From Flavobacteriaceae bacterium (GTDB lineage: Bacteria > Bacteroidota > Bacteroidia > Flavobacteriales > Flavobacteriaceae), in the NCBI GenBank assembly GCA_965224465.1, contig OZ245049.1, positions 510,001 through 542,000 of the forward strand: DNA of 32,000 nucleotides. The letters are read 5' to 3'. Positions 8,364-32,000 of the stretch are shown piece after piece (within the stretch, counting starts at the first letter, position 1; each line of letters starts with the position of its first letter). The translations under genes were made by a program, and so were the position numbers. The notes under the pieces are model-generated. The model ran no database searches and was not told the DNA's origin. It worked only from the letters and a program-made list of their open reading frames with translations.

Positions 8364-8543
8364 AAAGAAATTTACACCAAGACCATCAAAATTAACAGTA
8401 AAAAAATCGTTGAACCGCTTAAAATTTAAAAAATTTGAATACTTTTAACGATAAAACAACACATACCCCGAAAGTATTATAGACATAACGGAAATAACGT
8501 CAAGTTTTGGAAGTTTATTGATGATATGTGGGGGTTGTAAAAC
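8364..8543 (+). repeat. Recombinase-3'-end/junction repeat, copy A (leftmost edge of the cassette array)
   Basis: It encodes a relic ...KEIYTKTIKINSKKIVEPLKI* that is homologous to the last codons of the 13973-15109 recombinase, including the catalytic Tyr codon at 8373-8375. About 100 nt homologous to 15070-15170 follow, ending in GTTGTAAAAC (8534-8543). Confidence 0.8.
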
Positions 8544-8573
8544 ATTTGAAAAGAATCAAATACCATAAAAAAA

Positions 8574-9749
8574 ATGGCTTATATTCAAATTAAAGGTTAC
8601 CCTAATACAAAAATAAAAATTAAACTTCCTAAAGTTATCAAGAAGGCTGAAATATTAGAAGCTTATTGGTCAGATGAAAAAGGAATTAAAATCAATGTTT
8701 TAGACTATAACAAGAAAGCCTATATAAGGATAAAAAGTAAAAATATATTTAAAAAAATTATAACATTACGTGTATATGAAAGCGATATCGGACCTATGAA
8801 TGATGATTTCATATGGGAAGATGAATTATCTCTTAAAAATAATGATGCAATTTTATCCTTTAATTTAACTCCAAATATGTTTGTTAAAGGAGAAGAGGAT
8901 CTGGTAAACTTCTATTTTACTTTACAAATAGAAGATCAAGATGAAAAAGAATTTAATAATAATAAAAAAGAGTATTTAAAGGTTCATTTAGTACGCTATG
9001 TTCCTGGAGTATTAAAAGCTTTAGGGTGGAATAAAGGGGCAGAACTACAAGAAGAATGGTTTAGTAGACAAGCAAGTAGCAACCCTGACTCTAACAATCC
9101 TAATTTATCTATCATAACGATGAATTGGATATTAGGATTTACAAGTGCTAAAACATTGCTTAGCTCTATGATTACTCAGAAAATTTGGGTAAATACAGCA
9201 GGAAAAAGAGCCTTGCTATCAGAAATTAAACGCATGATTAAAGATAATGAAGTGACCATCCCGATTAATGAAGGTAGTTCTTCTAGTTTTGGGGTATTTA
9301 ACAATACTATAATTAATTACAAAAATAAAAGGATTCCAAAATTTGATAAATACCACTATCAAGAACGTGCATTTGCTCCTGGATCTTTTAGCACATTGGA
9401 TGATCTCACTGCTGCCTTGGCTAATTTCGTTTTCAGAATGTCTTCTGGAGGAACGATAACCAAAAACAAAGACAATTATACTATTCAAATAATTAAAGTT
9501 GCCACTTATGTAAGAGACTCCTTTGACTTTATTGATCCAGGATGGGCTAGTCAAAATTTAGGCTACTGGAACATACAGGAAAATAAAGTAGTTAAATTTT
9601 CTTTGGGTTCTGGATATAGATTAATTGAAAATTCTAGTTATCAAAATTACAGGAGTGAATTTCAGATGGGAGGAGATTTTCGTTTATATAGCGATATTCA
9701 CTATACAAATACTAATGATACTTTTGACGTACCTTTAACTACTTTCTAA
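8574..9749 (+). CDS. Polymorphic-toxin-like protein, variant 1 (C-terminal domain of unknown function)
   Basis: 391 aa. The first 22 aa, MAYIQIKGYPNTKIKIKLPKVI, are shared with the 15197 ORF (MAWIEIKGYPETRMKIEFPKVV), after which the two proteins diverge completely. A small membrane-protein gene follows 3 nt later. Confidence 0.5.
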   Translation: MAYIQIKGYPNTKIKIKLPKVIKKAEILEAYWSDEKGIKINVLDYNKKAYIRIKSKNIFKKIITLRVYESDIGPMNDDFIWEDELSLKNNDAILSFNLTPNMFVKGEEDLVNFYFTLQIEDQDEKEFNNNKKEYLKVHLVRYVPGVLKALGWNKGAELQEEWFSRQASSNPDSNNPNLSIITMNWILGFTSAKTLLSSMITQKIWVNTAGKRALLSEIKRMIKDNEVTIPINEGSSSSFGVFNNTIINYKNKRIPKFDKYHYQERAFAPGSFSTLDDLTAALANFVFRMSSGGTITKNKDNYTIQIIKVATYVRDSFDFIDPGWASQNLGYWNIQENKVVKFSLGSGYRLIENSSYQNYRSEFQMGGDFRLYSDIHYTNTNDTFDVPLTTF

Positions 9750-9752
9750 AAA

Positions 9753-10106
9753 ATGAAAAAAATGATATATATATTATTCTCGATATTAGTTATTTCTTTA
9801 ACAGCATACTTATTCTTTTTTAGAAAGGAAAGTAAAACATATACGAGTCCAGATGGTTATTATTCATTAATTATAAAAAAGAAGTCTAACCTTTTTAAAA
9901 CGACCTCTCCTGGTGATGGTGGAAATTATGAAGTTGAAATAGTGTTAAAAAACAAAAGAGGTAATATTATTGGAGAAAGTAATAGTAATCTAAACTGTAG
10001 AGTATTCAATGACAGCATAGAGATTGAATGGGATATTAAAAATGATCAAGTTAAGTATAGTAGAGGAAAGACCATTAATCTTAAAACGGGTAAAGTAGAA
10101 TGTTGA
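9753..10106 (+). CDS. Small N-terminally anchored or secreted protein, candidate cognate immunity protein
   Basis: 117 aa with an N-terminal hydrophobic helix, MKKMIYILFSILVISLTAYLFFF. It is tightly linked downstream of the toxin-like ORF. Confidence 0.45.
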   Translation: MKKMIYILFSILVISLTAYLFFFRKESKTYTSPDGYYSLIIKKKSNLFKTTSPGDGGNYEVEIVLKNKRGNIIGESNSNLNCRVFNDSIEIEWDIKNDQVKYSRGKTINLKTGKVEC

Positions 10107-10121
10107 TGAAAATTATTTTTC

Positions 10122-10345
10122 AATTGAATAGACGGCTCCAACTAAAATAGCTATCAGTCACCTTTCGCACTACCATAGATACGAAAACTTCGCTCGGTAA
10201 TTTCTAATTATAAGTATAAAAACACTTCTAATTCTCATGAACCTATACGACGGTTCAAAAAATTGAAGTTTGTGTATTATTAATGGTTTGTATCCTTTTC
10301 GTACAAGTCTAGATTTGGGTTTGGTAGTTTTTAAAATTGAATTTT
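10122..10345 (-). pseudogene. Relic of the 3' end of a related group IIC intron (domains V/VI plus the last ~25 RT codons)
   Basis: attgaatagacgg... matches atcgagtagacgg... at the intact introns. atacgacggttcaaaaaattgaag matches their domain V/RT-stop region. The tracked ORF 10170-10370 carries SRLVRKGYKPLI, the RT C-terminus. It is truncated upstream. Confidence 0.7.
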
Positions 10346-10354
10346 TTCTTATTA

Positions 10355-10555
10355 AGCCATGCTTCTCCAAAAACCACAGAGATATACACCAAGACCATCA
10401 AAATTAACAGTAAAAAAATCGTTGGACCGCTTGAAAATTTAAAAAATTTGAATACTTTTAACGATAAAAACAAATAATCACTCATTCTACTCTAGCTATG
10501 TTAGAAATAACAGCTACTCTAAGAGTTCTATAGTAGATATACGGGTGTTAGGCAC
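10355..10555 (+). repeat. Recombinase-3'-end/junction repeat, copy B (recombinase pseudogene fragment plus junction)
   Basis: The in-frame relic HASPKTTEIYTKTIKINSKKIVGPLENLKNLNTFNDKNK* (10358-10477) is homologous to the recombinase C-terminus. The unit ends atatacgggtGTTAGGCAC (10547-10555). Confidence 0.8.
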
Positions 10556-10568
10556 AATAACCAAATTT

Positions 10569-11237
10569 ATGATAAAAATCACATGTACTGAAGCACCAAT
10601 ATTTGCTCAAATTGTTAATAGAAATTTCGTGAATATTACCAGAGTTTCAAGATTATTAGATGATTTTACTAAAAGTTTAAATCAAGATATTTTGAGACTT
10701 TGCGTTGTATATTTACATGCCTCATCAGAAGATTTGTTAAGAAATGTTTATTTTTATCACATCACTAATTCCGACCATTCAAATTTATTAGGTAAGATTC
10801 CTCTATTTGAATCAGACGGAAAAAAAGAAAAGTTTAATTTTCAAGATCTTAAATACTTTAAAAATTACACGATTGAAGAAATAATGAATAAATCTTGTGA
10901 AGAATATGCAAATCGACTAACGTTTAATAATACAAATGATATCATTTCTGTTTTCAACAAATTTAATGTAAGTACTGAAAAAATAAAACATTTACTACCT
11001 CAAGTTCAAGAAATTTTTTTGAGAAGACATTTAATTGTACATAACTTAGATATGAATACTAATCGTTTTCATTTAAGTAAAGAAGAATCAATAAGACACG
11101 ATGGGAAAATTGAAACAAAAGATAACTTAAACAAAGCAATTATTGAGAATTGGATAAATATAATGAGTCAATTTATGCTAAAAACTGCAATTAGTTTTTT
11201 ACCTAAAGGCACATCAATTACGATGAATAATATTTAA
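10569..11237 (+). CDS. HEPN-like (RiboL-PSP/Abi-type) protein, tentative
   Basis: The tracked ORF starts at a GTG inside the junction motif; the first ATG is at 10569. The only recognisable motif is an Rx4H-type box, FLRRHLIVHN, in the C-terminal third. It is otherwise unassignable by eye. Confidence 0.35.
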   Translation: MIKITCTEAPIFAQIVNRNFVNITRVSRLLDDFTKSLNQDILRLCVVYLHASSEDLLRNVYFYHITNSDHSNLLGKIPLFESDGKKEKFNFQDLKYFKNYTIEEIMNKSCEEYANRLTFNNTNDIISVFNKFNVSTEKIKHLLPQVQEIFLRRHLIVHNLDMNTNRFHLSKEESIRHDGKIETKDNLNKAIIENWINIMSQFMLKTAISFLPKGTSITMNNI

Positions 11238-11341
11238 TAAACATAGTACAGTTCAAACAAAGCATAAAAAGAATAAGGCTTAAGTTTCAATTAAAAAATT
11301 TATTTGATGATTAAAAGAAATATAATAGTATTAGATTCTTA

Positions 11342-12460
11342 AATTCAAGTAGTAAATGCAACTTCTTAGATTTGAGAGTTTCTAAGGTTTATTTTTCAAA
11401 ACAGAAAGAGAGTCACCTCTCCTTCATGTTTTGATGGAATAGTTACCTTACGCCCTCAAGTCTCTGAAAAAGAAGTAGTATGGCACATTTAACCAAAGAA
11501 CAAAGATACACAATTACCTGTATGTTATCACAGGGGTATTCTAAGTCCAAAATAGCCTTGGCTATAGGGAAACATAAAAGCACTATAAGTAGAGAATGCA
11601 AACGTAATTGCGATGCTCGTAGCGGCTCCTATGAATACGAATTAGCACATAGAAAGTGGAAGGATAGACATAAGAAAAAGCGAAAGCACATTAGGTTTAC
11701 TGAGAAGATAAGAAGCGAGGTTGAAAAGCTGTTACGTGATGATTATAGTCCAGAACAAGTGGTTGGAATACTTACTAAGCAAGGAAAAGAAGTTGTTTCA
11801 GTAGAACGTATTTATCAGCATATCTGGCAAGATAAGAAGCATAAAGGCACACTCTATACTCATTTAAGAAGACAAGGAAGGAAGTACAGGAAACGAGGGG
11901 CATTCAAGGACTCACGTGGTATTATTAAAGATCGAATTAGTATTGAAAAACGACCAGATATAGTGGAGAAAAGAGAACGTTTTGGAGATTTAGAAGTGGA
12001 TTTAATAATTGGAAAAAATCATCATCAAGCCATTCTTACAATCAATGACAGGGCTTCTGGGATGCTAAAGATGAAAAAAATAGCATCTAAAGAATCTTCT
12101 GTTGTAACAGCTGCTATTAATGAGCTTTTAGAAGATTGGATACCGTATATAAACACTATAACAGCTGATAACGGAAAAGAGTTTGCAGGACATAAAAAAG
12201 TAGCTGAATTTTTAGGAATCGATTATTATTTTGCACATCCTTACCATTCATGGGAAAGAGGATCTAATGAAAATTTAAATGGGCTTATTCGGCAATATTT
12301 CCCTAAAGGAAGTGACTTTTCGATATTAACTAAGCAGATGATAAAACAGGTGGAAGGAAAATTAAATAGAAGGCCTAGGAAAAGGTTTTCATATCAAAAC
12401 CCTATATTTGTAATGAATCAATTATTGTTTAACCAAAAAGTTGCGTTTATAAGTTGAATT
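11342..12460 (+). mobile_element. IS30-family insertion sequence (~1.12 kb)
   Basis: Imperfect terminal inverted repeats: AATTCAAgTagTAAAtGCAACTTcTT at 11342-11367, and the reverse complement of 12435-12460 (AATTCAAcTtaTAAAcGCAACTTtTT). The transposase stop lies inside the right repeat. No clear target duplication was seen. Confidence 0.6.
11480..12457 (+). CDS. IS30-family transposase
   Basis: 325 aa. It has an N-terminal HTH (LTKEQRYTITCMLSQGYSKSKIA...STISRECKRN) and a DDE core (GDLEVDLI, ITADNGKEF, WERGSNENLNGLIRQYFPKG). Confidence 0.9.
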   Translation: MAHLTKEQRYTITCMLSQGYSKSKIALAIGKHKSTISRECKRNCDARSGSYEYELAHRKWKDRHKKKRKHIRFTEKIRSEVEKLLRDDYSPEQVVGILTKQGKEVVSVERIYQHIWQDKKHKGTLYTHLRRQGRKYRKRGAFKDSRGIIKDRISIEKRPDIVEKRERFGDLEVDLIIGKNHHQAILTINDRASGMLKMKKIASKESSVVTAAINELLEDWIPYINTITADNGKEFAGHKKVAEFLGIDYYFAHPYHSWERGSNENLNGLIRQYFPKGSDFSILTKQMIKQVEGKLNRRPRKRFSYQNPIFVMNQLLFNQKVAFIS

Positions 12461-12570
12461 CAGCATTAAATATAAGAAATCATTCATAATTAGTAAATTA
12501 TTTAAATCGTTACGGTAAAATAAACTAACAAAAAACCATAACAGATTTATAACTATAATGAAAATTAAAA

Positions 12571-12851
12571 GTGCCTAATAACTAAGTGTTCGTGCGGTGC
12601 ATAGCGCCCAGCATGAACATAATGTTGACTATACCGGCCCAAAAGATGATACTATGGGGATTGCGCGAAGTTTATTAAGAAGCTATCGACAAGGACCTTA
12701 ATAAGATACTACCTGTTTTAGTGCATTTACTCCCACGCTCTTTTGTGGGGATAGTTTTTTACTGTTTTTTGATACTGATTATTGTTGGTTAGTAGCGTTT
12801 AGGCATGCGTTTTCCATTACGTGGCTACGTTTGTTTATTTTCGGTTATTAG
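12571..12851 (+). other. Atypical long attC-like site / non-coding spacer closing the HEPN-IS30 cassette
   Basis: It starts GTGCCTAAtAAC, the near reverse complement of the cassette start GTTAGGCAC. It ends ggCTACGTTTgtttattttcgGTTATTAG (12844-12851). That end resembles the ...CTACGTTT...ccGTT right ends of two of the three long sites, and it is the exact complement of CTAATAAC at 12575-12582. No ORF is present. Confidence 0.4.
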
Positions 12852-12936: not shown

Positions 12937-13012
12937 ATCGTTCTGTTTTTCAACAATGCTAGTACGTAAACCAACCTGTTTATATCGGTCATTTCAGATA
13001 GTAGTTGGTATT
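12937..13012 (+). repeat. 76-nt direct repeat, copy 1
   Basis: atcgttctgtttttcaacaatgctagtacgtaaaccaacctgtttatatcgg...ttggtat. It is about 85% identical to 13690-13765. Confidence 0.8.
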
Positions 13013-13463
13013 ATATTCGCACTCTGATTATTATTATTTCCTGATCTGTAAATTCCATCCAAGCAAAATCATATAAATAACGATAGGTTTTACCTTGGGA
13101 ATTTATATATGAATGGGTACTGTATTTAAAATTGAATTTTTTCTTATCTAAGCGTAAACGAGTTATTTTTTTTTGGCTTAGATTCTTCCCCATCACTTCC
13201 AACAATATAGATCGATTCCTATGTAAAATACGATCAATATCTGTACACATGTCTTTGGTAACACGCCGCAGATTTGTATGGTAATAATTCTTACATTTGA
13301 TGGAACAAAATATTTTATTAGTCCTACCTACAATTTCTGTTGAACAAATTTTACAGGTTTTCATAGCTTCATAATTATTTAAATTTAAAAAAAACGATCT
13401 CGTTGCCATTTTATAAGGAGTGTTTCTAAACCCACCAATGGGTTTAATCCCCGATGCTTGCAT
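13011..13463 (-). CDS. Zinc-ribbon protein of unknown function (part of the recombinase module)
   Basis: It has a CxxC...CxxxC ribbon, MKTCKICSTEIVGRTNKIFCSIKCKNYYH. The likely true start is Met34 (13364) or Met19. Confidence 0.55.
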   Translation of the reverse strand: MQASGIKPIGGFRNTPYKMATRSFFLNLNNYEAMKTCKICSTEIVGRTNKIFCSIKCKNYYHTNLRRVTKDMCTDIDRILHRNRSILLEVMGKNLSQKKITRLRLDKKKFNFKYSTHSYINSQGKTYRYLYDFAWMEFTDQEIIIIRVRI

Positions 13464-13972: not shown

Positions 13973-15109
13973 ATGAAAAGGACAGAAATTTACATACCCG
14001 TAAAAAATGCGAAACGTATAAAAGTAAGTATTCCGTATCATAGGACAGTCCTAAGACAAAAAATTAAAGAGATAAACAGTTCCTTTTGGCATCCCAATCA
14101 AAAATTATGGTCGGTTATAAATACCGAAGAAAATTTTGAACTGTTAAAATCCATTTGTGGAAAAGACACGTTGCTTAGCGCGGAAAAGTCCCCCACTCCA
14201 CTACCCGAAGTAATTTTAAATCAGAGACAGATAGAAGCGCTATTAAACTTAGAAAAAACACTGGTGTTAAAACGCTATGGTTTATCGACCATACGCATGT
14301 ATAAAAGAATGTTTAGTTTATTTTTAATGAAATTTTCCAGTAGAGATTTGGTACAAATCACTAAACAAGAAATAGAGTCCTTTATATATGAGTTGATTAA
14401 AAAAAACGGTATTTCGGAGAGCATGCAAAACCAAATTATTAATGCCATTAAAGCCTATTATGAACATGTTTTAAAAAAACCAAGAGAATTTTACGATATA
14501 GAACGTCCCAAAAAAACGATAAACATACCAAATGTGTTAAGTGAAGAGGAAGTAGTAGCATTACTTAACAGTCCTAAAAACCTGAAACATAAGGCTATAT
14601 TATGGACAATATATAGTGCTGGCCTACGAATAAGCGAAGTATTAAATTTAAGAATTGCAGATATAAATTCGGACGACGGCTATCTTTTTATAAAAAACAG
14701 CAAAGGAAATAGAGACCGAAAAACAATCTTATCTCCTCGTTTACTCCCTTTATTAAGAAGTTATTATAAAAAATACCGTCCCTCCTATTGGTTATTTGAA
14801 GGACAAACTGGCGGAAAATATACCCAAAGTAGTATTCGTAGTTTTTTTAGACGTGCCGTAGAAGAATCCAACATAAACCCCTGGGCAACAGTACACACCT
14901 TAAGGCATTCATTTGCTACACATTGCATCATAAACCAAGTAAGTATGCGTCATGTACAGAATATGCTAGGCCATGCCTCTCCTAAAACAACCGAGATTTA
15001 CACCAAAACAATTGAAATAAATAACAAAAAAATTAAAGGACCGCTTGAAAACTTAAAAAATTTGAATACATTTAACAAAAAAACAACACACAACCCGAAA
15101 CTATTATAG
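13973..15109 (+). CDS. Tyrosine site-specific recombinase (XerC/D-like catalytic spacing with an ~80-aa N-terminal extension)
   Basis: Catalytic signature: AGLRISE (Arg), HTLRHSFATH (His-x-x-Arg), LGHASPKTTEIYT (His...Tyr). It has a SAM-like core-binding region, ESMQNQIINAIKAYYEHVL. Only about 88 aa separate box I Arg from box II His, so the extra IntI-specific insertion appears to be absent. Confidence 0.9.
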   Translation: MKRTEIYIPVKNAKRIKVSIPYHRTVLRQKIKEINSSFWHPNQKLWSVINTEENFELLKSICGKDTLLSAEKSPTPLPEVILNQRQIEALLNLEKTLVLKRYGLSTIRMYKRMFSLFLMKFSSRDLVQITKQEIESFIYELIKKNGISESMQNQIINAIKAYYEHVLKKPREFYDIERPKKTINIPNVLSEEEVVALLNSPKNLKHKAILWTIYSAGLRISEVLNLRIADINSDDGYLFIKNSKGNRDRKTILSPRLLPLLRSYYKKYRPSYWLFEGQTGGKYTQSSIRSFFRRAVEESNINPWATVHTLRHSFATHCIINQVSMRHVQNMLGHASPKTTEIYTKTIEINNKKIKGPLENLKNLNTFNKKTTHNPKLL

Positions 15110-15170
15110 AGATAACGGAAATAACGTCAAGTTTTGGAAGTTTATTGATGATATACGGGTGTTACAAAAC
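14984..15170 (+). repeat. Recombinase-3'-end/junction repeat, copy C (the functional copy)
   Basis: It covers the last ~40 codons of the recombinase plus 60 nt, ending atatacgggtGTTACAAAAC (15161-15170). It is homologous to 8364-8543 and 10355-10555. Confidence 0.85.
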
Positions 15171-15196
15171 ATTAAAACCAATTAAAACCCTAAAAA

Positions 15197-16384
15197 ATGG
15201 CTTGGATTGAAATAAAAGGTTATCCTGAAACAAGAATGAAAATTGAATTTCCTAAAGTAGTAGCTATTGATGCAATAGAATGTATTACAGATTTAGAAGA
15301 TGGTTCTGACAATCTAGGCACAAATAGTACACAGAAAGGAATGATTTACGGGAAAGAATATGAATTCAAAGTTTCTAAGTATTATAAAAATAATACACCT
15401 ACTGATGAAATGATTAAAGAGATTATTTGGGAATACTCTTATGCAAATGATGAAGGGGGTGTAACAATAACAACTCAAAAAGAATCTTCTGGAGAAAGTT
15501 TTAAATTGAAAATTGATAACCTTGAAATATTAGGTAAAAAAATATCAATTTATGCTTATTTAGGATGTAAGCAAAGTGAAGGCAATTTAGATATCTTTTG
15601 CCATAATCGGTTTAGATATTTTGACAAGGAGATAATAAAAAATGAACTAAATAAGAGGAAAAATAATCCTGAATTAGCAAATCAAAGTATGACTCCTACT
15701 TGCGGAATGGCTTCAATATTTTATATATTAGCTAAAGAAGATTTTGATAACTATCAAAACTTTATACTTGATTTACATCAAACTGGGATTGCTAAATGTA
15801 ATTCATATGAAGTTGATGTTTCTAAATGTGAGCATTTATTAGAAATGGATCCTGTTATAGATAATTTATACCCCGTGTTATATGGTAAAAAAATGCCATA
15901 TATTGATTGGATTCCTTTTTCTTGCGTTAGAGACTTAGAAAATAATTTACCCATAAGTTATAATGGCAAAATGAGCCAATCTTCATTAGATGAATTTTCA
16001 GGAGCTACATTGCCTCACGAAATAGAAAAATTAATGAAAGAGGTTTTAGGTTTCAATAAAATTATAAACGACACAAATCTCGTTTTCAATAAAGATAGCC
16101 AAGCTTTTGGCGAAATATCCGCCAGAGAATTAAAGAAATTACAAGATTTATATTTAGATGGATATAATATATGCTTATTTATTAATACAAATATGATAAG
16201 TAATAAGAAATCTGGAATTTTATCGACAATTGAACATTGGGTCGTATTCGAGGGAATTATTGGAGGAACAATTAGTTGGGATGAATATGATTTCAAAGTC
16301 TTTACTTGGGGTCGTATCGAGAAAATCATTATAAACCCAGAGTCATTCAGATCAAATTATTATGGATATGTTGCAGGTAAATAA
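15197..16384 (+). CDS. Polymorphic-toxin-like protein, variant 2, with a papain/C39-like Cys-His peptidase (or amidase) fold
   Basis: 395 aa. It shares the N-terminal 22 aa with the 8574 ORF. The candidate catalytic set is NQSMTPTCGMASIFYIL (Gln, five intervening residues, then Cys-Gly) and TIEHWVVFEG (His). A lipoprotein gene follows. Confidence 0.5.
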   Translation: MAWIEIKGYPETRMKIEFPKVVAIDAIECITDLEDGSDNLGTNSTQKGMIYGKEYEFKVSKYYKNNTPTDEMIKEIIWEYSYANDEGGVTITTQKESSGESFKLKIDNLEILGKKISIYAYLGCKQSEGNLDIFCHNRFRYFDKEIIKNELNKRKNNPELANQSMTPTCGMASIFYILAKEDFDNYQNFILDLHQTGIAKCNSYEVDVSKCEHLLEMDPVIDNLYPVLYGKKMPYIDWIPFSCVRDLENNLPISYNGKMSQSSLDEFSGATLPHEIEKLMKEVLGFNKIINDTNLVFNKDSQAFGEISARELKKLQDLYLDGYNICLFINTNMISNKKSGILSTIEHWVVFEGIIGGTISWDEYDFKVFTWGRIEKIIINPESFRSNYYGYVAGK

Positions 16385-16781
16385 AAAACTTATTTATTTC
16401 TTTTTAATCATACTACTTTCGAGTTGTAAAGAGAAAGTTAAACAATGTAGTTTGGAAAATTCTATATTTAGTAGAATTACTTTAAAAGAGTTTAAAAACT
16501 TAAGAAGTCTAAGCGTAAATGGAAAAAAAAGAAATAATCTTTTAAAGGTAAATTCTAATGGAGTCTATATAAAAATAGATTCTGAAATATACGATGAATT
16601 AAGAAAAGATAAGGTTTTGTTTGTAATTAATGATTCTTTGAACTATATCATTTCAGAAATTAGAATAGATTCTGTAGAAAGGCAAACTATGGTAAATAGA
16701 ATTAATGATTGTTTTTTGGTATCATATAAAGTTAATGACTCAATAATTTATCATCATCAAGAGATTATTATAAATCACTAA
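16362..16781 (+). CDS. Small lipoprotein, candidate periplasm-facing immunity protein
   Basis: It has a signal peptide with a lipobox, KKLIYFFLIILLSSC. It overlaps the toxin-like ORF by 23 nt (or 17 nt from Met3). Its stop lies 3 nt before the cassette-end motif. Confidence 0.5.
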   Translation: MDMLQVNKKLIYFFLIILLSSCKEKVKQCSLENSIFSRITLKEFKNLRSLSVNGKKRNNLLKVNSNGVYIKIDSEIYDELRKDKVLFVINDSLNYIISEIRIDSVERQTMVNRINDCFLVSYKVNDSIIYHHQEIIINH

Positions 16782-16792
16782 AACGTTTTGTA

Positions 16793-18648: not shown

Positions 18649-18840
18649 ACAAAGTATATAAAACATAGCTAATAAGTGCTTAACCCAAAGGTCAGTGCTT
18701 ATTTACTAAGTTCCGCCAAATTTTTAATTTGGCTTTTAAAATAGAAAAGATAAAAACAAAATATAAAAATCTGGCTCTGTGCTAAACCCGAAATTTATCG
18801 TATTTTCATACGCTACGTTTCATATACAAACCGTTAGGTG
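18649..18840 (+). other. Long attC-like site (right part; the left 9 nt are at 16784-16792, split off by intron 1)
   Basis: The reconstituted left end is GTTTTGTA|AC-AAAGTATA. It has three GTGCTWA boxes, the first two 19 nt apart. The central hairpin is GCCAAATTTTTA (18715) paired with TAAAAATCTGGC (18775). The right end is TATACaaaccGTTAGGTG (18833-18840). Confidence 0.65.
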
Positions 18841-18866
18841 CAAGCTGAAAAAAAAATCCCACCGCA

Positions 18867-18917
18867 CGTTCAAGCACATTTTATTTTGCTCGTGCCTCAC
18901 AAAATAAAAAGAGCTTG
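18867..18917. repeat. Hairpin element with conserved loop CTCGTGCCTCA, copy 1 (5' leader of the 4-gene cassette)
   Basis: caagcacattttattttg - ctcgtgcctca - caaaataaaaagagcttg, with 16 of 18 stem positions paired. A second copy with compensatory stem changes is at 23758-23813. Confidence 0.6.
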
Positions 18918-19026
18918 CCCTTTCCCACCACCACCACTCAAACGAAAACAAGAATAAAACTCACAACTTTTTGAGATAAAATGAAAAAATAACTTACTTT
19001 AGTGGCTGAATAAATTACATCTAAAA

Positions 19027-19221: not shown

Positions 19222-19222
19222 A

Positions 19223-21190: not shown

Positions 21191-21194
21191 AATT

Positions 21195-23749: not shown

Positions 23750-23757
23750 AAAGCCAA

Positions 23758-23813
23758 CGTAAGTTCAAGCACATTTAAAGTTTGCTCGTGCCTCACAAAT
23801 TTAAAAGAGCTTT
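23758..23813. repeat. Hairpin element with conserved loop CTCGTGCCTCA, copy 2 (3' trailer of the 4-gene cassette)
   Basis: caagcacatttaaagtttg - ctcgtgcctca - caaatttaaaagagcttt. It has the same loop as copy 1, and the stem sequence changes on both arms. Confidence 0.6.
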
Positions 23814-23860
23814 CACGCCAACGCTAGTAAGTTTGCGGAAAGAAAAAAGCCAGACACCTA

Positions 23861-25765: not shown

Positions 25766-25956
25766 ACAATGTATAAAAAACATAGGGCGGTTTGTGCTAA
25801 ACTCTAAGTTCTGTGCTTGTTTACAAAGTCCGCTAAATATAAAATTTGGCATTTAGGAGAAAAATAAAAGCAAAATATTTATATTTAGCTAAGTAATAAA
25901 CCGAAACTAAAGTGCTTATTTATTGCCCTACGTTTCTTATACTAACCGTTGGCAAC
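25766..25956 (+). other. Long attC-like site (right part; the left end is at 23855-23860)
   Basis: The reconstituted left end is CACCTA|AC-AATGTATA. It has three GTGCT boxes. A perfect 12-bp central stem joins GCTAAATATAAA (25832) and TTTATATTTAGC (25889). The right end is TATACtaaccGTTGGCAAC (25948-25956). Confidence 0.65.
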
Positions 25957-26000
25957 AAGCAAAACAGAGATCCAATAAAATATAAAACAAAGAATTCTAA

Positions 26001-26531
26001 ATGGAAATTTTAAATATTGAAATAAAAGCAAAATCGGACAACCAAACTGAAATTAGGAATATCCTGAAATCAAAAAATGCTAAATATAAAGGAACTGACC
26101 ACCAAATTGATACGTATTTTAATGTTAACAATGGACGATTGAAATTAAGAGAAGGAAATATTGAAAACAACTTAATCCATTATATTAGAGAAAATAAAAA
26201 AGGACCAAAACAATCAAAAATAATTCTTTTTAATTCAGAGCCCAATTCTACTTTAAAAGAATTATTGACTGTTGCAAACGGAATTTTAACAGTAATTGAT
26301 AAAGAAAGAGAAATATATTTTATTGAAAATGTGAAATTTCATATTGATACTGTAAAAGAATTAGGAACTTTTATAGAAATTGAAGCAATTGATAAAGATG
26401 GAAGTATTGGAAAAGATAAATTATTATTACAATGTGAATACTATCTTGATTTATTTAATATTCCCAAAGAAAACCTGATATCTGTTTCATATAGTGATTT
26501 GAAATTAAAAGAAAAAATGAGAATGAAATAA
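26001..26531 (+). CDS. CYTH-domain protein (CyaB-like class IV adenylyl cyclase / triphosphate tunnel enzyme)
   Basis: 176 aa. It has the N-terminal EIEIK-type motif (NIEIKAK), then DTYF, RLKLRE, KEREIYFIENVKFHIDTVKELGTFIEIEA, and SYSDL near the C-terminus. Confidence 0.75.
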   Translation: MEILNIEIKAKSDNQTEIRNILKSKNAKYKGTDHQIDTYFNVNNGRLKLREGNIENNLIHYIRENKKGPKQSKIILFNSEPNSTLKELLTVANGILTVIDKEREIYFIENVKFHIDTVKELGTFIEIEAIDKDGSIGKDKLLLQCEYYLDLFNIPKENLISVSYSDLKLKEKMRMK

Positions 26532-26543
26532 AGCCAGTTGCCA

Positions 26544-28448: not shown

Positions 28449-28635
28449 ACAATGTATATAATTAATGCGGGGTTTGTGCTTAATTCAAAGAGCTGTGCTT
28501 TCTACAAACAACGCCAAATATAAAATTTAGTTTGTAGAAAAAAATACAAGCAAAATTATTATATTTGGCTAAGTGCTAAACCGAAAAGATAATTCTTTTA
28601 AGTTCCGCACTAATCATATACCAACCGTTATGGGC
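28449..28635 (+). other. Long attC-like site (right part; the left end is at 26537-26543)
   Basis: The reconstituted left end is GTTGCCA|AC-AATGTATA. It has three GTGCT boxes. The central stem joins GCCAAATATAA (28513) and TTATATTTGGC (28569). The right end is ATATACcaaccGTTATGGGC (28627-28635). Confidence 0.65.
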
Positions 28636-28668
28636 AAGTGAAAAAATCCCCACATTAAATAAATTGAA

Positions 28669-30966
28669 ATGAATTATCAAATAGATTATAATACGATTGT
28701 AATAGTAGCCTGCATACCTTTTATAATTGCATTGACAGCAATAGCTTTTCCTTTATTACTACAAACAACCAGTAGAATAGATGATAAATATTCATCAACT
28801 AACTTAGTGAAAGTATTCTACAATAATCGAATTTGTAAAGTTTATTTCTTCTCATTAGTGCTTTCTATAATTGCAATTCCAATTTGGTTTTTTGCTCCTC
28901 CCCGAATTTGGGATTTTGGAATATTTAATGAGTTGGTAGATAAAACCTCCTTTTTAATAATTGGCTTAAGCACATTATTTTTAATATGGAATTTGTTTTC
29001 TCTCGTTTATCTAATTTATGTATTTTATAGCCCTAATAAATTACTTGAATATTTAATTGATAAGCACAACGAAACTAATTTAAAAGAGGAAAGAACAAAA
29101 TATTTTATTTCAATTTCTGATTTACTATACTTCTCAATTCAGAATCCTAATGAAAAAATTGCTCGACAACTTGTTGAGTTTCTTAATCATATTTTCATTA
29201 TGGAAAGAAAAGATAATGAAAGTCAAATTATTAAATATCCATCAGAATACTACGATACAATTTTTGAGGCAAACGAACAAATTTGTTTAAAGAAAAAGAA
29301 AACTATTTCAGAGTATAATGGAAGTACATTTGTTAACCTCTTTATCGATAGTTATCAGAAAACTATTATTAGTGAGGAAACTTACAATGCTATTTGGTTA
29401 TGTCTTAGACAAAGTTTAAGTTATGAAAGAAGCGATATTGTAATGTCTTATTGGGGTAATGCTCATCAGCATTTCAATATGTTTATGCCAGTAATTCATG
29501 AAGAAAGGAATGAAAATTTCAAGGTTATTAATCAAGAAATCATTAGAAAAAGAGAAATTGAAAGAGAAAGGTTTTTAGAATTTCATTATGCCTTTGGAGG
29601 ACTAATGATGTATTTAGGGAAAATGGAATTACTAAAAAGAATAATTAGTCATACAAATCAAACGCCACCTAAATATGTTCTTGTGCCACAGACAATGATT
29701 GAGATAATTCAGAGATATATGAGCATTGAAGAACCTTTACTCAATCCTTTTCAGTTTGAAAGCAGGTATCATTTTCCAGAAAATACAGGAATAAATGCTG
29801 GAGGTATAATAAGAAAATGGATAAGGAAATATTGTGCTTTACTTTTTTTACGCCAATATACCCTCCACGACTATTATTATGGAAGATCTGCTCTTGACTT
29901 ACCAAATGTTCCAAATTCATTAACAGAATTGAATGCTTGGAAAGAAAAATTGGAAAGTTTAAAAAGATTTATAAAAGAGTTACTTGTTGACAATGAGTCT
30001 TTAAAAGAGGTTGGTTTAGGTGATCTAAATAATGATTGGTTTACTAAAAATGAAAAACAAAAACCAGCGGAATTAATAGATACCCTTATTAAAAGAGCAA
30101 ACAAAAAATATGACGAAACAAAAAAAGAACAACCGGTTTCAAAAGACAAGGAAACTGAATTCAAAGCCAAGACTAAAGAAATTGTTTTGCAGGCTATAAA
30201 CACCTATACTGAAGTTAATAATGGCAATGATATTGAAGAAAATTTCAAATCCTATTATATTAATGGAGTTTATCAATTGATGGATAAATCGGGTTTTGCT
30301 GACAATCAAGATATTTCTCATCTTAATTCAGATACTATTGTTGCTCAAAGTGTTGCTTCAAATATACATTTTAAACTTACAAGTACTTTTTCTTATTTTA
30401 TTTCAAAAGATTACTTAATTGAAAGAGAGAATATTTTTGAGGCAATTGACAGGTTAAGTGTCAACCTTAAAGAATATTGTATAATATCATTTGGTGTTTA
30501 CCTTCCGTTTTTAGTAGACAATTTAAAAGTTCCTAATCTAACCAAACAAGGTGAATTCTATTATTTTCATGATACTAAAATAATTACTCTAAACACTTAT
30601 GTAAATGAAGTAGTAAGAGATTCTATTATAGTAATAAAGAAAGACTGTTTGCCTAAATTAGTATTTAAAACAATAGACACAGAAGAATTCACTAAATATA
30701 ACTTAGACGAATTGGATGAGCAAACTCATCTTTCTGCATCAATTGTTGATTTAAATATTAATCAAGATTTAAGGGATGAAATATCACGTAAATCGAATGA
30801 AGATTTAACAAAAAATGTATTAGCATGTATTTCCCTTTGTATTGAAACTCGCTGGAAATCATCTACTACTTGTTATCAATTTAAACCTTTTGACCAATTT
30901 AGAAATAAGGGAATTCCACAAAAATTGGAAGATATTGAAACGATAAATAAAACAACCAGCCCATAA
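28669..30966 (+). CDS. Large membrane-anchored protein of unknown function (about 4 N-terminal TM helices plus a ~630-aa soluble region)
   Basis: 765 aa. Hydrophobic segments lie within residues 10-125. I recognise no motif in the rest. The ORF fills its cassette exactly, and its stop codon lies inside the cassette-end motif GCCCATAAC. Confidence 0.6.
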   Translation: MNYQIDYNTIVIVACIPFIIALTAIAFPLLLQTTSRIDDKYSSTNLVKVFYNNRICKVYFFSLVLSIIAIPIWFFAPPRIWDFGIFNELVDKTSFLIIGLSTLFLIWNLFSLVYLIYVFYSPNKLLEYLIDKHNETNLKEERTKYFISISDLLYFSIQNPNEKIARQLVEFLNHIFIMERKDNESQIIKYPSEYYDTIFEANEQICLKKKKTISEYNGSTFVNLFIDSYQKTIISEETYNAIWLCLRQSLSYERSDIVMSYWGNAHQHFNMFMPVIHEERNENFKVINQEIIRKREIERERFLEFHYAFGGLMMYLGKMELLKRIISHTNQTPPKYVLVPQTMIEIIQRYMSIEEPLLNPFQFESRYHFPENTGINAGGIIRKWIRKYCALLFLRQYTLHDYYYGRSALDLPNVPNSLTELNAWKEKLESLKRFIKELLVDNESLKEVGLGDLNNDWFTKNEKQKPAELIDTLIKRANKKYDETKKEQPVSKDKETEFKAKTKEIVLQAINTYTEVNNGNDIEENFKSYYINGVYQLMDKSGFADNQDISHLNSDTIVAQSVASNIHFKLTSTFSYFISKDYLIERENIFEAIDRLSVNLKEYCIISFGVYLPFLVDNLKVPNLTKQGEFYYFHDTKIITLNTYVNEVVRDSIIVIKKDCLPKLVFKTIDTEEFTKYNLDELDEQTHLSASIVDLNINQDLRDEISRKSNEDLTKNVLACISLCIETRWKSSTTCYQFKPFDQFRNKGIPQKLEDIETINKTTSP

Positions 30967-31039
30967 CACGTGCTCATACATCATAGCTTTGCCGCAGGCG
31001 CAACACAAAGATACGCTGCATAGCACCACCGTTACCTGC
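30959..31039 (+). other. Short (81-bp) attC-like site, intron-free
   Basis: GCCCATAAC-ac-GTGCTcATaCA...TGcATAGCAC-cacc-GTTACCTGC. It has R-type ends AAC/GTT, unequal spacers (2 vs 4 nt), and an imperfect inner stem with bulged bases. Confidence 0.6.
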
Positions 31040-31195
31040 AAGCGAAAAAACAGCCAGCCGCACAAAAAAAGAGTGCCAAAAAAGGCACACATTGTTTTTT
31101 ACCCACCACATTTAACCATTACAATTAAACGACTTTTCTCATTAGAATTTAATGATTTATTATTAAGTTTACAGCATAATTAAATCTGTTCGAAA

Positions 31196-31393
31196 ATGAA
31201 CCGAATAAAAGAAATTCTGAAAGACAAAGGAATCAGTCAAACTTGGCTTGCTAAGGAAATGGAGAAGAGTTATCCTGCTATAAATGATTACGCAAGAAAC
31301 AAACGACAACCAAGCATTGAAGACCTTTACAAGATTGCCGAAATATTGAACGTAGACATTTCGGAACTATTAATATCAAACAAGAAAAAATGA
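31196..31393 (+). CDS. XRE-family HTH regulator (controller-protein-like)
   Basis: 65 aa, roughly 55% identical by eye to the 19027 ORF. Its stop overlaps the start of the next gene (ATGA). Confidence 0.85.
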   Translation: MNRIKEILKDKGISQTWLAKEMEKSYPAINDYARNKRQPSIEDLYKIAEILNVDISELLISNKKK

Positions 31394-32000
31394 AACTAAC
31401 CGATATATTAAGAGACAGTAACTATAAACTAACTCAATTTACAACTGAGCAAATTTCGACATTAGAAAATAGTATCTTTCTAAAAGAAGTTAGAGGAAAA
31501 GAAGTTCCATTTATTAACTGTTTGGTACGCAGAAAAGATATTCAACTAAAACCTGAAGAAGCCATTAGACAATTATATTTAATGGTTTTGAATGAAGAAT
31601 ACGGATATCCATTTGAAAGAATGGAAATTGAGTATGCCGTAAGTTTTGGACGTGAAAAGAAACGTGCTGATATTGTGATTTTCGACAAAAAAGATACCCG
31701 TTCTATCTACATAATGGTAGAACTTAAAAAACCGAAACTAAAAGATGGTAAAGAACAACTAAAATCTTATTGCAATGCAACTGGTGCACCAATTGGCGTT
31801 TGGAGTAATGGAGATTCAATTTCTTTTTATCATAGAAAAGACCCAAACTATTTTGAAGATTTATCTGCAATTCCATCTGCAAGTGAAAAATTATCTGATA
31901 TTTTAACCGAACGTTGGACAATTGACGATTTAGTAAAAAAAGATAAATTAGTTACCGAAAAAAAATCATTAAAAGATTTGATTTTGGAAATGGAAGATGA
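31390..32000 (+). CDS. Restriction-enzyme-like protein, N-terminal part only (HsdR-N / PD-(D/E)xK nuclease domain); truncated by the window end
   Basis: The frame is open from the ATG at 31390 to the last base (my own translation; it is not in the ORF track). It has the motif RADIVIFD...IYIMVELKKP (D...ExK), as in the N-terminal domains of type I/IIG enzymes. Confidence 0.6.
   Translation, partial: MKLTDILRDSNYKLTQFTTEQISTLENSIFLKEVRGKEVPFINCLVRRKDIQLKPEEAIRQLYLMVLNEEYGYPFERMEIEYAVSFGREKKRADIVIFDKKDTRSIYIMVELKKPKLKDGKEQLKSYCNATGAPIGVWSNGDSISFYHRKDPNYFEDLSAIPSASEKLSDILTERWTIDDLVKKDKLVTEKKSLKDLILEMED

Follow-up and report, generated by a model that had tools for sequence, protein, structure and literature searches.

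An integron-like gene-cassette array beside a Xer/IntI-superfamily recombinase in a marine flavobacterium

In the window, by which we mean the whole 32,000-nucleotide stretch of DNA analysed here, we identified what is probably a chromosomal gene-cassette platform, integron-like in its operation and run by a recombinase from another branch of the Xer/IntI superfamily. The anatomy of the array, the covariation of its cassette ends and sites, its orientation bias, the conservation of its platform and natural breakpoints inside GTT can be seen directly in the window and its relatives, and they support the reading given in an earlier note on this DNA.

Organisation of the array and its recombinase

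The cassettes hold one to several genes, measure 0.4-5 kb, share one orientation and end in an attC-like site. A 378-aa tyrosine recombinase (13973..15109, plus strand; Pfam, NCBIfam, PDB alignments, structure model and Foldseek) is followed by an attI-like site (15110..15163, plus strand; …GATGATATACGGGT-GTT), in which we place the crossover at GTT 15161-15163. Downstream on the plus strand lie the body of cassette 3 (15161..16792), with a 139-aa ORF and a toxin-like 395-aa ORF whose N-terminus is common to cassette 1, and that of cassette 4 (18833..23860), whose four proteins, assigned by Pfam and PADLOC (weak matches), are an XRE HTH protein, a 661-aa TPR protein, a MazG-like protein and a 741-aa GIY-YIG/SLFN-helicase/S24 protein. 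They are succeeded by the bodies of cassette 5 (25948..26543), encoding a 176-aa CYTH-domain protein (Pfam CYTH), and cassette 6 (28627..30967), encoding a 765-aa membrane protein that matched no family. Cassette 7 (31031..32000), which starts with GTTACCTG and continues past the window edge, encodes an XRE HTH protein (Pfam HTH_3) and a type I restriction-modification methyltransferase (PADLOC MTase_I, E 2.5e-82). ORFs had been described as filling the cassettes tightly, which does not apply to every cassette: in cassette 4, 105 nt separate the stop codon from the end motif.

Upstream of the recombinase, two decayed copies of the platform, each comprising a recombinase 3' fragment and an attI-like site on the plus strand, are each followed by one cassette. 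The first copy (8341..8536, GTT end at 8534-8536) is recognised as a direct repeat of 14967-15197 with 80-85% identity and leads into cassette 1 (8534..10122, plus strand), with a DUF6402 toxin-like ORF (8574-9749; Pfam E 1.5e-34) and a lipoprotein-like 117-aa ORF (9753-10106). At the end of cassette 1 a related group II intron has left a remnant of its 3' region (10123..10352, minus strand; 85-86% identity with the 3' ends of the window introns). The second copy (10353..10549; …GATATACGGGTGTT), recognised by repeat comparison, leads into cassette 2 (10547..12582, plus strand), which carries an IS30-family transposase gene (11480-12457; NCBIfam IS30, E 2.4e-87). Divergent from the recombinase is a minus-strand gene for a treble-clef-like CxxC…CxxC protein of 150 aa (13011..13463), for which Pfam gave only weak DUF2116/PLATZ matches.

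An extra N-terminal domain of ~90 aa precedes the SAM-like core-binding and catalytic domains of the recombinase, the catalytic one lacking the IntI insertion. NCBIfam scored the protein at 188 bits for XerA and 180 bits for IntI, both under cut-off (265 for IntI); its alignment with VchIntIA fell into two pieces and skipped IntI residues 207-245, the ~40-aa IntI-specific insertion, and Foldseek with the structure model ranked XerA and IntI4 highest. Judged by sequence and modelled fold, it appears to be an XerA/IntI-like protein on a distinct branch of the Xer/IntI tyrosine-recombinase superfamily. This bears out the earlier note, which had called it not IntI-like, and the best matches are to archaeal XerA. 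The note was also right about the orientation of the gene, which is that of the cassettes downstream of it; that it sits inside the array is true only through the two decayed upstream copies.

Cassette ends and attC-like sites

All six pairs of start and end motifs that the earlier note had listed were found at the coordinates it gave. Measuring anchored perfect complementarity, with ends read across introns, we found that the first bases of four cassettes complement their own ends perfectly: GTTACAAAAC with GTTTTGTA(+AC) in the cassette at 15161 (10 nt), GTTAGGTG with CACCTA(+AC) at 18833 (8 nt), GTTGGCAAC with GTTGCCA(+AC) at 25948 (9 nt) and GTTATGGGC with GCCCATAAC at 28627 (9 nt), compared with only 3-6 nt for starts and ends drawn from different window cassettes. 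Among the two pairs described as degraded, that of cassette 2 (10547/12571; start GTTAGGCAC, end GTGCCTAA-TAAC) matches at 9/9 with a 3-nt insertion, whereas that of cassette 1 (8534/10116; start GTTGTAAAAC, degraded end ATTTTTCA) is present but weak, at 6/8.

This signature across the GTT/AAC core is general in the recombinase family. In relatives, 60 of 73 cassettes had at least 9 nt of complementarity to their own end, as against 0.76% of 5256 mismatched pairs. Across 67 cassettes, the covariation score was 0.626 compared with 0.142 in shuffles (reached by 0 of 500), 77.3% of cells were paired compared with 51.8%, and sliding the partners against each other lowered pairing to 28-38%; at cassette-end positions 4-10 all four pair types occurred, with at most two unpaired cells. 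Compensatory change is also visible between homologous cassettes, GTTAGCTGTA/TACAGCTAAC of one being replaced by GTTGGCAGTA/TACTGCCAAC in its counterpart; for the linkage of gene block and site, the comparison covered two homologous pairs. The shuffle count that the earlier note had suggested proved uninformative: when all inverted matches of the GTT…/…AAC type within 300-6000 nt were counted in the intron-free array, those of at least 9 nt numbered 24, no significant excess over the 18.3 of dinucleotide shuffles. Anchoring the test at the sites makes it informative, and the result was then overwhelmingly positive for window and relatives alike.

Cassettes are separated by sites of 80-190 nt that form imperfect hairpins, ordered as N7-AAC (R''), a 3-nt spacer, GTRTAW (L''), a variable core, WTAYAC (L'), a longer spacer of 5-6 nt and GTT (R'). 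In the window these are the long sites S3 (18649..18835, plus the A at 16792, ending in GTT 18833-18835), S4 (25766..25950) and S5 (28449..28629), all three supported by covariance model and folding, and the short, ~75-nt site S6 (30959..31033; GCCCATAAC…ACCACCGTT), which has no intron and was read from sequence; all lie on the plus strand. The long sites show all the features that had been described: spacers of unequal length, the inner pair GTATAW/WTATAC, stems in the centre, and GTGCTWA boxes set 19 nt apart. Their mutual identity, given as about 60-70% in the earlier note, measured 67-74%. That the stems are kept by compensatory change was confirmed in an alignment of 45 sites, with such changes in 8 of 13 consensus pairs (for example, A-T in 28 and G-C in 17, broken in 0). 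A covariance-model search gave 86 hits, of which 84 share the strand of the recombinase and almost all lie downstream of it, with window scores of 50 bits for S3 (E 4e-7), 45.5 for S4 and 46.6 for S5. The model misses S6 and the Parabacteroides sites, so that the definition of sites outside the main type rests on reading of the sequence.

Three minus-strand group II introns occupy the bottom strand of R'' at TTGT|T, where IIC-attC introns, the kind specific to integron attC, have been published to insert. Their boundaries (16793-18648, 23861-25765 and 26544-28448) are backed by identical repeat ends and D1-D4 matches. Intron 1 has an intact 426-aa RT/maturase (TIGR04416, E 4e-107) and Rfam matches to RF02001, RF01998 and RF00029, its domain V-VI ending at 16793; in intron 2 the RT ORF is split by a 49-nt insertion, and intron 3 has the same sequence as intron 2. 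An equivalent arrangement of intron in site occurs in L034 and in the ctg14802l array. Like IIC-attC introns, those of the window run opposite to cassette transcription, are inserted directly past a stem-loop, encode an RT without an endonuclease domain match and occur in several identical copies; unlike theirs, the host sites are not canonical attC. By this analogy, the introns may be taken as independent witnesses to the attC-like nature of the sites.

In the mechanism that we favour, we infer the adjacent recombinase to be the catalyst, which would cut and exchange strands inside GTT/AAC of R', so that each excised circle would bring the start of its cassette up against that cassette's site. 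In the array context the R stem consists of AAC/GTT and chance matches only, a point against this scheme; in the circle, the first bases would pair with R'' over 9-10 bp, followed by a conserved C·A mismatch and three more base pairs, and re-entry of the circle would take place at attI or one of its decayed copies. The exact position of cleavage, the circular intermediate and the single-stranded substrate are likewise parts of this proposed scheme. The active form of the site would most likely be one folded strand, probably that of the bottom, in parallel with integron attC sites and with the hairpin of CTX phage on which XerCD acts. In CTXφ, a Xer enzyme that lacks the IntI insertion is able to recombine a single-stranded DNA hairpin via a single strand exchange.

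Alternatively, the recombinase may drive the cassettes through ordinary double-stranded core sites, possibly as cruciforms, and two strand exchanges. The enzyme resembles the Xer recombinases of duplex dif sites, the attI-like site has inverted repeats as a duplex core site would, and the lack of the IntI helix tied to single-strand recognition (I2, which reads extrahelical bases and is essential according to the integron literature) counts against our main reading. We nevertheless consider duplex sites unlikely. Free-choice covariation of the stems, conserved mismatches and unequal spacers fit selection on a folded strand, whereas selection on duplex half-sites read by a protein would yield another pattern, and introns that require a bottom-strand stem-loop occupy these sites. 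Moreover, when both strands were folded as the earlier note had suggested, all four window sites formed long hairpins in circular context (z -3.8 to -7.0; for the S6 bottom strand, -19.5 kcal/mol, z -3.8), and the bottom strand, which gains G·T pairs, was the more stable in 4 of 4.

Rearrangements among strains and conservation of the platform

Comparison with relatives, another check proposed earlier, showed differences of order and presence that break in GTT. The L082 genome, that of a near-identical strain, has flanks 99.7% identical to those of the window and an identical recombinase. Its CYTH cassette, 100% identical to cassette 5 and third in the window, lies first at attI; cassette 2 is replaced by a cassette with a 359-aa ORF, decayed platform 2 leading into this other cassette with the breakpoint directly past GTT, and the stretch 8534..10122 of cassette 1 is missing. 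In the metagenomic L088, cassette 3, which adjoins attI in the window, follows another site. All left junctions of these rearrangements fall in GTT. In related species the platform is common up to the attI GTT, with no homology beyond, and ten metagenome contigs with near-identical attI carry eight different sequences directly past GTT, four of the contigs having a 9-nt complement and a site about 650 nt downstream.

Such shifts of order might instead come from homologous recombination alone, acting on REP- or terminator-like repeats and on identical introns, without site-specific exchange. In favour are the 70-98% identity among sites of one array, the presence of three identical introns in the window, a right edge of the shared CYTH block that falls on the intron insertion point, and a strain difference (8460-10377) that is flanked by two direct repeats. 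Nevertheless, we regard this explanation as very improbable: homologous recombination cannot join attI to a formerly site-borne cassette with breakpoints exactly in GTT, because attI and site share just …TATAC-N4-5-GTT, and it leaves unexplained why 7-10 variable first bases complement the cassette's own last bases with full four-way covariation. Under the cassette-platform reading, the pairing of gene block and downstream site is not fixed, with CYTH followed by site 'A' in L082 and by an intron and S5 in the window, and with site 'A' adjoining a GmrSD cassette in L088; to accommodate this, one must further assume that identical introns recombined homologously or that a second crossover took place at R''.

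The recombinase family is widespread in Bacteroidota, and the truncated "xerD" beside tet(X3) is a member. An attI-like motif (…GATATAWC-stem…stem-GWTATAC-N4-GTT), 50-100 nt past the stop codon, follows about 35 recombinase homologues, which is nearly all of them; the CxxC…CxxC gene is kept beside the recombinase in about 28 relatives (blastn, same relative position, L001-L038), and the extra N-terminal domain is duplicated in Bacteroidales homologues. An ordinary cassette cluster (CALIN) served in trans by a canonical IntI encoded elsewhere in the genome, of which the analysis covered this window, with the Xer-like recombinase as a bystander, would account for the sites showing every formal attC feature and for introns drawn to them at the IIC-attC target TTGT/T, but is scarcely credible given that the recombinase, orientation, attI distance and downstream site polarity are conserved in dozens of genomes from several families, that the decayed platform copies still join the recombinase 3' end to attI, that IntegronFinder surveys know complete integrons in Bacteroidetes only from Salinibacter (PMC9024848), and that a 2024 integron study names Bacteroidota among the clades earlier found without any integrons.

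Relation to known systems

The platform resembles sedentary chromosomal integrons in the conserved joining of a recombinase gene to an adjacent attI, in its co-oriented, mostly promoterless-looking cassettes, in a crossover in G|TT and in sites built as R''-L''…L'-R', in which AAC/GTT is invariant, a spacer stays unpaired and the core varies. Shared as well are cassette starts that complement their own inverse core, sites alike within one array (cf. VCRs), bottom-strand group II introns at TTGT/T, toxin/immunity and defence cargo, and a chromosomal position kept within the genus. It differs in the recombinase (no I2 helix, 180 rather than 265 bits on the IntI model, an extra ~90-aa N-terminal domain), whose gene is co-oriented with the cassettes with attI past its stop codon, in the host phylum Bacteroidota, in a longer R stem (9-10 bp, a fixed C·A mismatch, 3 bp), in sites of 120-190 nt and in many multi-gene cassettes. 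By sequence and fold, the recombinase is nearest archaeal XerA; unlike XerA/dif and the CTXφ attP used with XerCD, the window has neither a lone chromosomal site of the dif type nor an FtsK context, and instead presents a many-site array with a dedicated recombinase gene.

The closest described relatives appear to be the rAID-1 (recombinase-associated acquired interbacterial defence) arrays of gut Bacteroidales (Ross et al. 2019, bioRxiv 10.1101/471110; PMC12247911), and the comparison seems apt by description. They likewise belong to Bacteroidota, have a conserved motif directly past the recombinase stop codon and a second in intergenic regions, which the same sources call 'reminiscent of integrons', carry toxin/immunity-type cargo and are often broken at contig ends. 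The rAID-1 account is phenomenological, with biogenesis called unresolved as of 2025, and we found no literature description of the mechanism proposed here. Unlike rAID-1, the present arrays belong to marine Flavobacteriaceae, and what they hold goes beyond short orphan immunity genes to complete toxin and immunity pairs and defence systems of several genes. Among Bacteroidales, the nearest member that we examined, Parabacteroides sp. FAFU027 (L083), follows the same GTT/AAC logic with an unrelated site sequence.

The cargo of polymorphic toxin/immunity pairs and defence-type genes (the restriction-modification methylase, the GIY-YIG/helicase system) suggests that the array is a store of conflict genes. 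It would represent an integron-like cassette array in a phylum generally thought to be without integrons.

Complementary cassette ends and attC-like hairpin sites

The earlier note had proposed that each gene block of the array ends with the reverse complement of its own first bases, and all of the motifs that it listed are present when the sequence is read across the introns. In a matrix of anchored GTT…/…AAC comparisons, the window cassettes paired with their own ends over 10, 8, 9 and 9 nt, compared with 3-6 nt in all other combinations. The shuffle test that the note had asked for gave no clear excess: GTT…/…AAC inverted matches of at least 9 nt, spaced 300-6000 nt apart in the intron-free array, numbered 24 versus 18.3 in dinucleotide shuffles, a difference that is not significant. 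Since AT-rich matches swamp such a naive count, we used site-anchored tests instead; with a count no different from shuffles, the signal lies in the position of the matches beside the sites and not in their number.

Delimiting the cassettes of relatives by the attI-like site and the successive sites, we found perfect anchored complementarity of at least 9 nt between own start and own end in 60/73 cassettes, compared with 0.76% of 5256 mismatched pairs; the cassettes below 9 nt mostly hold an intron or an undetected site. Across 67 cassette ends (63/73 from relatives and the 4 of the window, with ten of 4 nt or fewer left out), 77.3% of helix cells were paired, versus 51.8% with partners shuffled and 28-38% after sliding, and the covariation score was 0.626 versus 0.142, a level reached by 0/500 shuffles. 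Positions 4-10 after GTT contain all four pair types with at most 2 unpaired cells. Position 11, beyond the 10-bp R stem, is a C·A mismatch in 66/67 cassettes (alignment A3) and is followed by 3 covarying pairs (AAA/TTT, GTA/TAC, GCA/TGC, AGC/GCT), an extension without counterpart in descriptions of canonical attC. Between homologous cassettes of two species, the start differs at two positions and the end changes to match. Selection for pairing between the two ends of a gene block requires that these ends meet, as they do in a circular excised cassette.

With introns removed, the three long sites of the window (S3, S4 and S5; ~185 nt) consist of N7-AAC, a 2-3-nt spacer, GTATAW, a stem, boxes, a central hairpin, a stem, WTATAC, a 5-nt spacer and GTT, at a pairwise identity of 67-74%, while the short site S6 (30959-31033, ~75 nt) is without intron. 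After the recombinase gene (13973-15109) comes …GATGATATACGGGT-GTT, which resembles the right half of a site. Relatives of the recombinase, taken from 80 species genomes, come mostly from Flavobacteriaceae (Algibacter, Polaribacter, Flaviramulus and others, 50-78% identity), with Algoriphagus, Paludibacter, Ferruginibacter and other relatives at 35-45%. Nearly all of these homologues have an inverted repeat and then GWTATAC-N4-GTT at most ~100 nt past the stop codon, and ~125-nt sites occur in the arrays downstream. In a 45-site alignment analyzed with RNAalifold, 8/13 consensus outer-structure pairs showed compensatory double changes (for example, A-T 28 / G-C 17 with 0 broken, and T-A 27 / A-T 12 / G-C 5). 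The covariance model built from this alignment, R1, scored the three long window sites at 45-50 bits and gave 86 matches in 1.03 Mb, 84/86 of them on the recombinase strand and nearly all downstream of a recombinase. It missed S6, most sites in the long array of a sister strain and the GC-rich sites of a Parabacteroides locus, and thus describes one site type only. Rfam holds no attC model.

When folded with DNA parameters in circular context, with the cassette's own start placed after the G, 4/4 window sites gave long, imperfect hairpins with the R stem as the closing helix. Stability was higher for the bottom strand than for the top in 4/4 cases (-29.4 vs -24.5, -33.9 vs -30.9, -39.0 vs -36.4 and -19.5 vs -13.3 kcal/mol), with bottom-strand z-scores of -3.8 to -7.0, and the unequal spacers produce G·T pairs and a two-base bulge on that strand.

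Both arms of the long sites also carry GTGCTWA(AAYYSAAAG) boxes (18675-18705 and 18778-18795; 25793-25820 and 25890-25922; 28476-28500 and 28570-28590), the first two 19 nt apart. As direct repeats these boxes cannot pair with each other and may therefore be protein-binding, possibly as arm-type sites for, e.g., the extra N-terminal domain of the recombinase.

Three minus-strand group II introns, with identical repeat ends and Rfam D1-D4 matches, lie at 16793-18648, 23861-25765 and 26544-28448, and an Rfam domain V-VI match stops exactly at 16793. Their minus-strand exon junctions (…ACTTTGT/TACAAAAC, …ACATTGT/TAGGTG and …ACATTGT/TGGCAAC) all read TTGT/T within R'', with a site hairpin immediately upstream of each intron and the introns opposed to the cassette genes. 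Bottom-strand insertion at TTGT/T in R'', opposite to the cassettes, was previously described for the group IIC-attC introns of integrons (PMC7923331; PMC3001079), and the window introns share this signature in 3/3 cases. The same arrangement recurs in a relative's locus (L034) and, many times, in the sister strain array of >45 kb. Mobile elements apparently specialised on attC bottom strands thus treat the window sites as attC. The intron RT has RVT_1 and GIIM domains only (TIGR04416) and no HNH. Intron 1 is intact. In introns 2 and 3, which have the same sequence, a 49-nt insertion (~24903-24947) found in these two alone breaks the RT ORF into 124 + 283 aa; these defective introns would have to have spread with RT acting in trans or by recombination.

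Natural rearrangements at GTT junctions

The earlier note had suggested checking whether rearrangements among relatives break at G/TT, and the junctions fall in GTT in strain, species and population comparisons. Exact-protein look-ups led to a sister strain, a 60.8-kb metagenome contig (ENA ERZ25073217 ctg14802l) with 99.7% identical flanks and an identical recombinase. In this strain the CYTH cassette (window 25948-26544, 100% identical) lies directly after attI, such that the sister attI reads …ATATACGGGTGTT/GGCAAC…, the window attI …ATATACGGGTGTT/ACAAAAC… and window S4 …TTATACTAACCGTT/GGCAAC…. Cassette 2 is swapped for another cassette in the same strain, with the left break right after the GTT of a decayed attI and the right break at …AA/TAAC. 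On a second contig of that metagenome (L088), the start of cassette 3 (100% over 523 nt) stands behind a different site, …TTACACAAACCGTT/ACAAAAC…, and not behind attI; an excised circle of cassette 3 was ruled out here, since past the intron the sequence is that of another cassette (GmrSD).

Similar breakpoints occur between species. In four sets of relatives' loci (L002/L006, L009/L011/L013, L012/L014 and L020/L038), the flank, the gene for a 150-aa protein, the recombinase and attI are 85-95% identical, and similarity is lost at the attI GTT. Among ten JGI metagenome contigs with near-identical attI, eight different sequences begin right at the base past GTT, and 4/10 contigs have the 9-nt complement and then a typical site ~650 nt downstream. 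A metagenome scan for the CYTH cassette start gave no match.

In the sister strain, the CYTH block leads into a long site 'A' that is uninterrupted; in the window, an intron and then S5 come after the block, and in L088 site A comes after the GmrSD cassette and an intron. The shared CYTH identity stops at the very position where the intron is inserted, which makes homologous recombination between identical copies of the intron the simplest explanation for this mismatch of block and site; a second crossover, at R'', may also account for it. In homologous cassette pairs, downstream and upstream site identities were 0.90/0.50 and 0.79/0.78, from two pairs only and with background pairs reaching up to 0.9.

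Combining the observed anatomy, covariation, polarity, conserved platform and breakpoints, we chart a candidate mechanism for cassette movement. From sequence, we infer catalysis by the adjacent recombinase, which would exchange strands by cleavage within the GTT/AAC of R' on a single-stranded substrate. Excision would then be a site × site event yielding a circle, and insertion a site × attI event. The substrate is likely the folded bottom strand, which in canonical integrons recombines by a single strand exchange with replicative resolution; this choice has indirect support from the higher folding stability of that strand and from the bottom-strand targeting of the introns. The circle of cassette 5, which holds the CYTH block, is predicted to carry the junction …ATCATATACCAACCG/TTGGCAACAAGCAAAAC, and the same logic would apply to cassettes 3, 4 and 6.

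The recombinase, its surroundings and the cassette cargo

The claim that the recombinase is not IntI-like was borne out, as the additional domain of IntI (~35-40 aa, I2 helix) is missing. In a phmmer alignment to VchIntIA (2a3v), residues 90-288 match IntI 6-206 and residues 287-359 match IntI 246-318, leaving IntI 207-245 without counterpart, and the IntI model TIGR02249 gives 180 bits against a cut-off of 265, with the match in two stretches. Across NCBIfam models, archaeal XerA scored 188 bits, integron integrase 180, XerD 160 and XerC 152, all below cut-offs. Pyrococcus XerA (4a8e) and VchIntIA (2a3v) were the best sequence matches among solved structures, and XerA and IntI4 topped the Foldseek search. 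The N-terminal domain (~90 aa) has no family match and is modelled as β-β-α-β-β-α-β (pLDDT ~80-88), and it stayed unassigned in a Foldseek search with the whole recombinase model; next come a SAM-like core-binding domain and then the catalytic domain. More than 5000 proteins among 8000 scored belong to the family at E<=1e-20, annotated only as 'tyrosine-type recombinase/integrase' or 'XerD'. Bacteroidales homologues reach 450-600 aa through having 2-3 tandem copies of the N-terminal domain (motif …RW…K.W.VP…; locus L048, 9716-11089; P0121-P0269). The co-orientation of recombinase and cassettes reported from the window holds in all relatives as well.

The G+C content of the window is ~30%. Minus-strand cobalamin genes and a riboswitch extend up to 8182, and the plus-strand cassette array runs from ~8340 onward, with a GC of 27-33% versus 33-36% in the flank. 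Its 7 cassettes are all co-oriented and lie within the bounds set for rAID-1 (recombinase-associated acquired interbacterial defence) arrays of gut Bacteroidales, namely at least 2 genes and a GC of at most 41%. Upstream of the intact gene, the recombinase 3' end and attI-like site recur as decayed copies at 8341-8536 and 10353-10549, with a cassette after each. Another such copy (L087 9625-9826, ENA ctg10020l), 86% identical to window 14967-15163, is on another contig of the sister strain's metagenome, where introns and cassettes adjoin it; decayed platform copies seem common in this species.

Two cassettes encode a toxin-like ORF (DUF6402, common N-terminus) with a small downstream ORF, and the remaining cassettes hold defence-type or unknown genes; domain and defence-gene searches identified no immunity family among the window cassette genes. 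The 5' ends of the toxin-like ORFs of cassettes 1 and 3 (8574-8640 and 15197-15260; MAxIxIKGYPxT…) are 84% identical and their C-terminal parts differ, a predicted ORF layout that matches polymorphic toxins sharing one delivery domain. Cassette 2 contains an IS30-family transposase gene (11480-12457). The products of cassettes 6 and 7, looked up as exact proteins to extend the window array, had no match.

A ~65-nt motif (…CCACCGCACGTTCAAGCACATTT…TTTGCTCGTGCCTCACAAA…) is found at both the start and the end of cassette 4 (18854-18916 and 23749-23812). Similar leaders (31040-31100; L008 ~11186-11551, L003 ~11180 and, in the sister strain, L082 ~15900) occupy the 5' end of other cassettes in which an XRE HTH gene comes first, and the motif may act as a promoter/operator or as a small RNA. 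On the right, cassette 2 and the cassette that replaces it in the sister strain are both bounded by …AA/TAAC-TAAGTGTTC-GTGCGGTGCATAGCGCCCAGCATG… (window 12577-13010; L082 8541-8975), and the stretch is kept between the strains, atypical as a site and with no obvious hairpin. Region 12583-13010, which starts GTGCGG, was suspected to be an intron fragment and had no Rfam match.

Just upstream of the recombinase and divergent from it, a minus-strand gene (13011-13463) encodes a 150-aa CxxC…CxxC protein with weak treble-clef/PLATZ matches only. The gene is kept at the same position in ~28 flavobacterial relatives and is absent upstream of the Parabacteroides homologue; its product may be a regulator or an accessory factor. 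It is flanked by a 66-nt direct repeat (12946-13011 and 13700-13765, 83% identity), which was sought in five relatives and not found.

Relation to integrons, rAID-1 arrays and tet(X3)

The system works like an integron but falls outside the test that defines membership, because its recombinase has no IntI insertion. As in canonical integrons, an attI-like site lies beside the recombinase and cassettes enter at G/TT; the sites, like canonical attC, are imperfect inverted repeats (R''-L''…L'-R') with AAC/GTT ends in which structure is kept over sequence; and cassettes are mobile as units at G/TT, with CYTH and cassette 3 moved and cassette 2 replaced. In contrast to canonical integrons, where intI is divergent from the cassettes and the Pc promoter lies in intI or attI, the window recombinase is co-oriented. 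An 'inverted' integron group with co-oriented intI exists. Integron surveys found Bacteroidetes nearly devoid of integrons (PMC9024848; 2024 integron study), and Smyshlyaev et al. described the insertion as 'not fully conserved' in their integron-like subgroup. No description of the present cassette mechanism was found in the literature searched.

Among described systems, the rAID-1 arrays of gut Bacteroidales come closest. Their definition calls for an XerD-like recombinase at the 5' end with at least 44% identity to B. fragilis BF9343_RS08045; protein searches returned no named gut Bacteroides homologue. Going by the description of their motifs, rAID-1 arrays resemble the window family in having conserved motifs 3' of the recombinase and between genes, here attI-like and attC-like. 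The rAID-1 cargo is made up of orphan genes for immunity to T6SS and other toxins; the window cassettes carry toxin-like ORFs with small downstream ORFs, along with defence-type and unknown genes. The locus of Parabacteroides sp. FAFU027 (L083) follows the same GTT/AAC logic with unrelated, GC-rich sites: its attI reads …TATATATTGGTGTT/ATGGCC, and GTTAGGGGC pairs with GCCCCTAAC. The origin of rAID immunity arrays was stated as an open question in 2025.

In ISCR2 units of Acinetobacter (L089 5049-7200, on the Acinetobacter indicus plasmid NZ_CP041297.1, and L090, pHH1107), tet(X3) has immediately upstream of it a truncated 'xerD/tnpF' that is 53% identical to the window recombinase, gapless over 215 aa, and by this similarity is a member of the same family. 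An attI-like inverted repeat is kept there, with GTT and then a leader of cassette type up to the start codon of tet(X3) (GGATATATACGCCATTTGGCGTATAGCCACTT-GTT-ATGTGCC-ATTTTTGA-ATG), and the putative cassette start reads GTTATGTGCC…. Past the tet(X3) stop lie an R''-type AAAAAAC-GGCTACT-AAC and a short hairpin, an end that does not complement the start. Published work records the 'xerD'-tet(X3) adjacency but not its meaning. tet(X3) may once have been the first cassette of such a platform, before its capture by ISCR2.

We consider the chances evenly divided that these elements form a second, IntI-independent integron lineage widespread in Bacteroidota (thousands of homologues, in marine, soil, digester and gut-related genomes), in which a XerA-like enzyme that never acquired the I2 insertion recombines folded attC-like hairpins, and which provides both the biogenesis mechanism of rAID arrays and the original platform of tet(X3)-type tigecycline resistance genes. 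IntI is what defines an integron, and its insertion is held essential for recombining folded attC; attC logic with an insertion-less recombinase suggests that the hairpin-cassette strategy either evolved twice or predates the insertion. Cassette platforms now extend to a phylum that surveys scored as essentially integron-free, and the rAID immunity arrays of gut Bacteroidales are offered a concrete, testable building mechanism. The arrays would be reservoirs of genes for toxin/immunity and phage defence that go undetected by current tools (IntegronFinder), and a covariance model of the sites would permit systematic mining. Finally, the family membership of the tet(X3)-linked 'xerD' and the attI-like site kept beside it suggest how a resistance gene of clinical importance may have left Bacteroidota, namely via such a platform.
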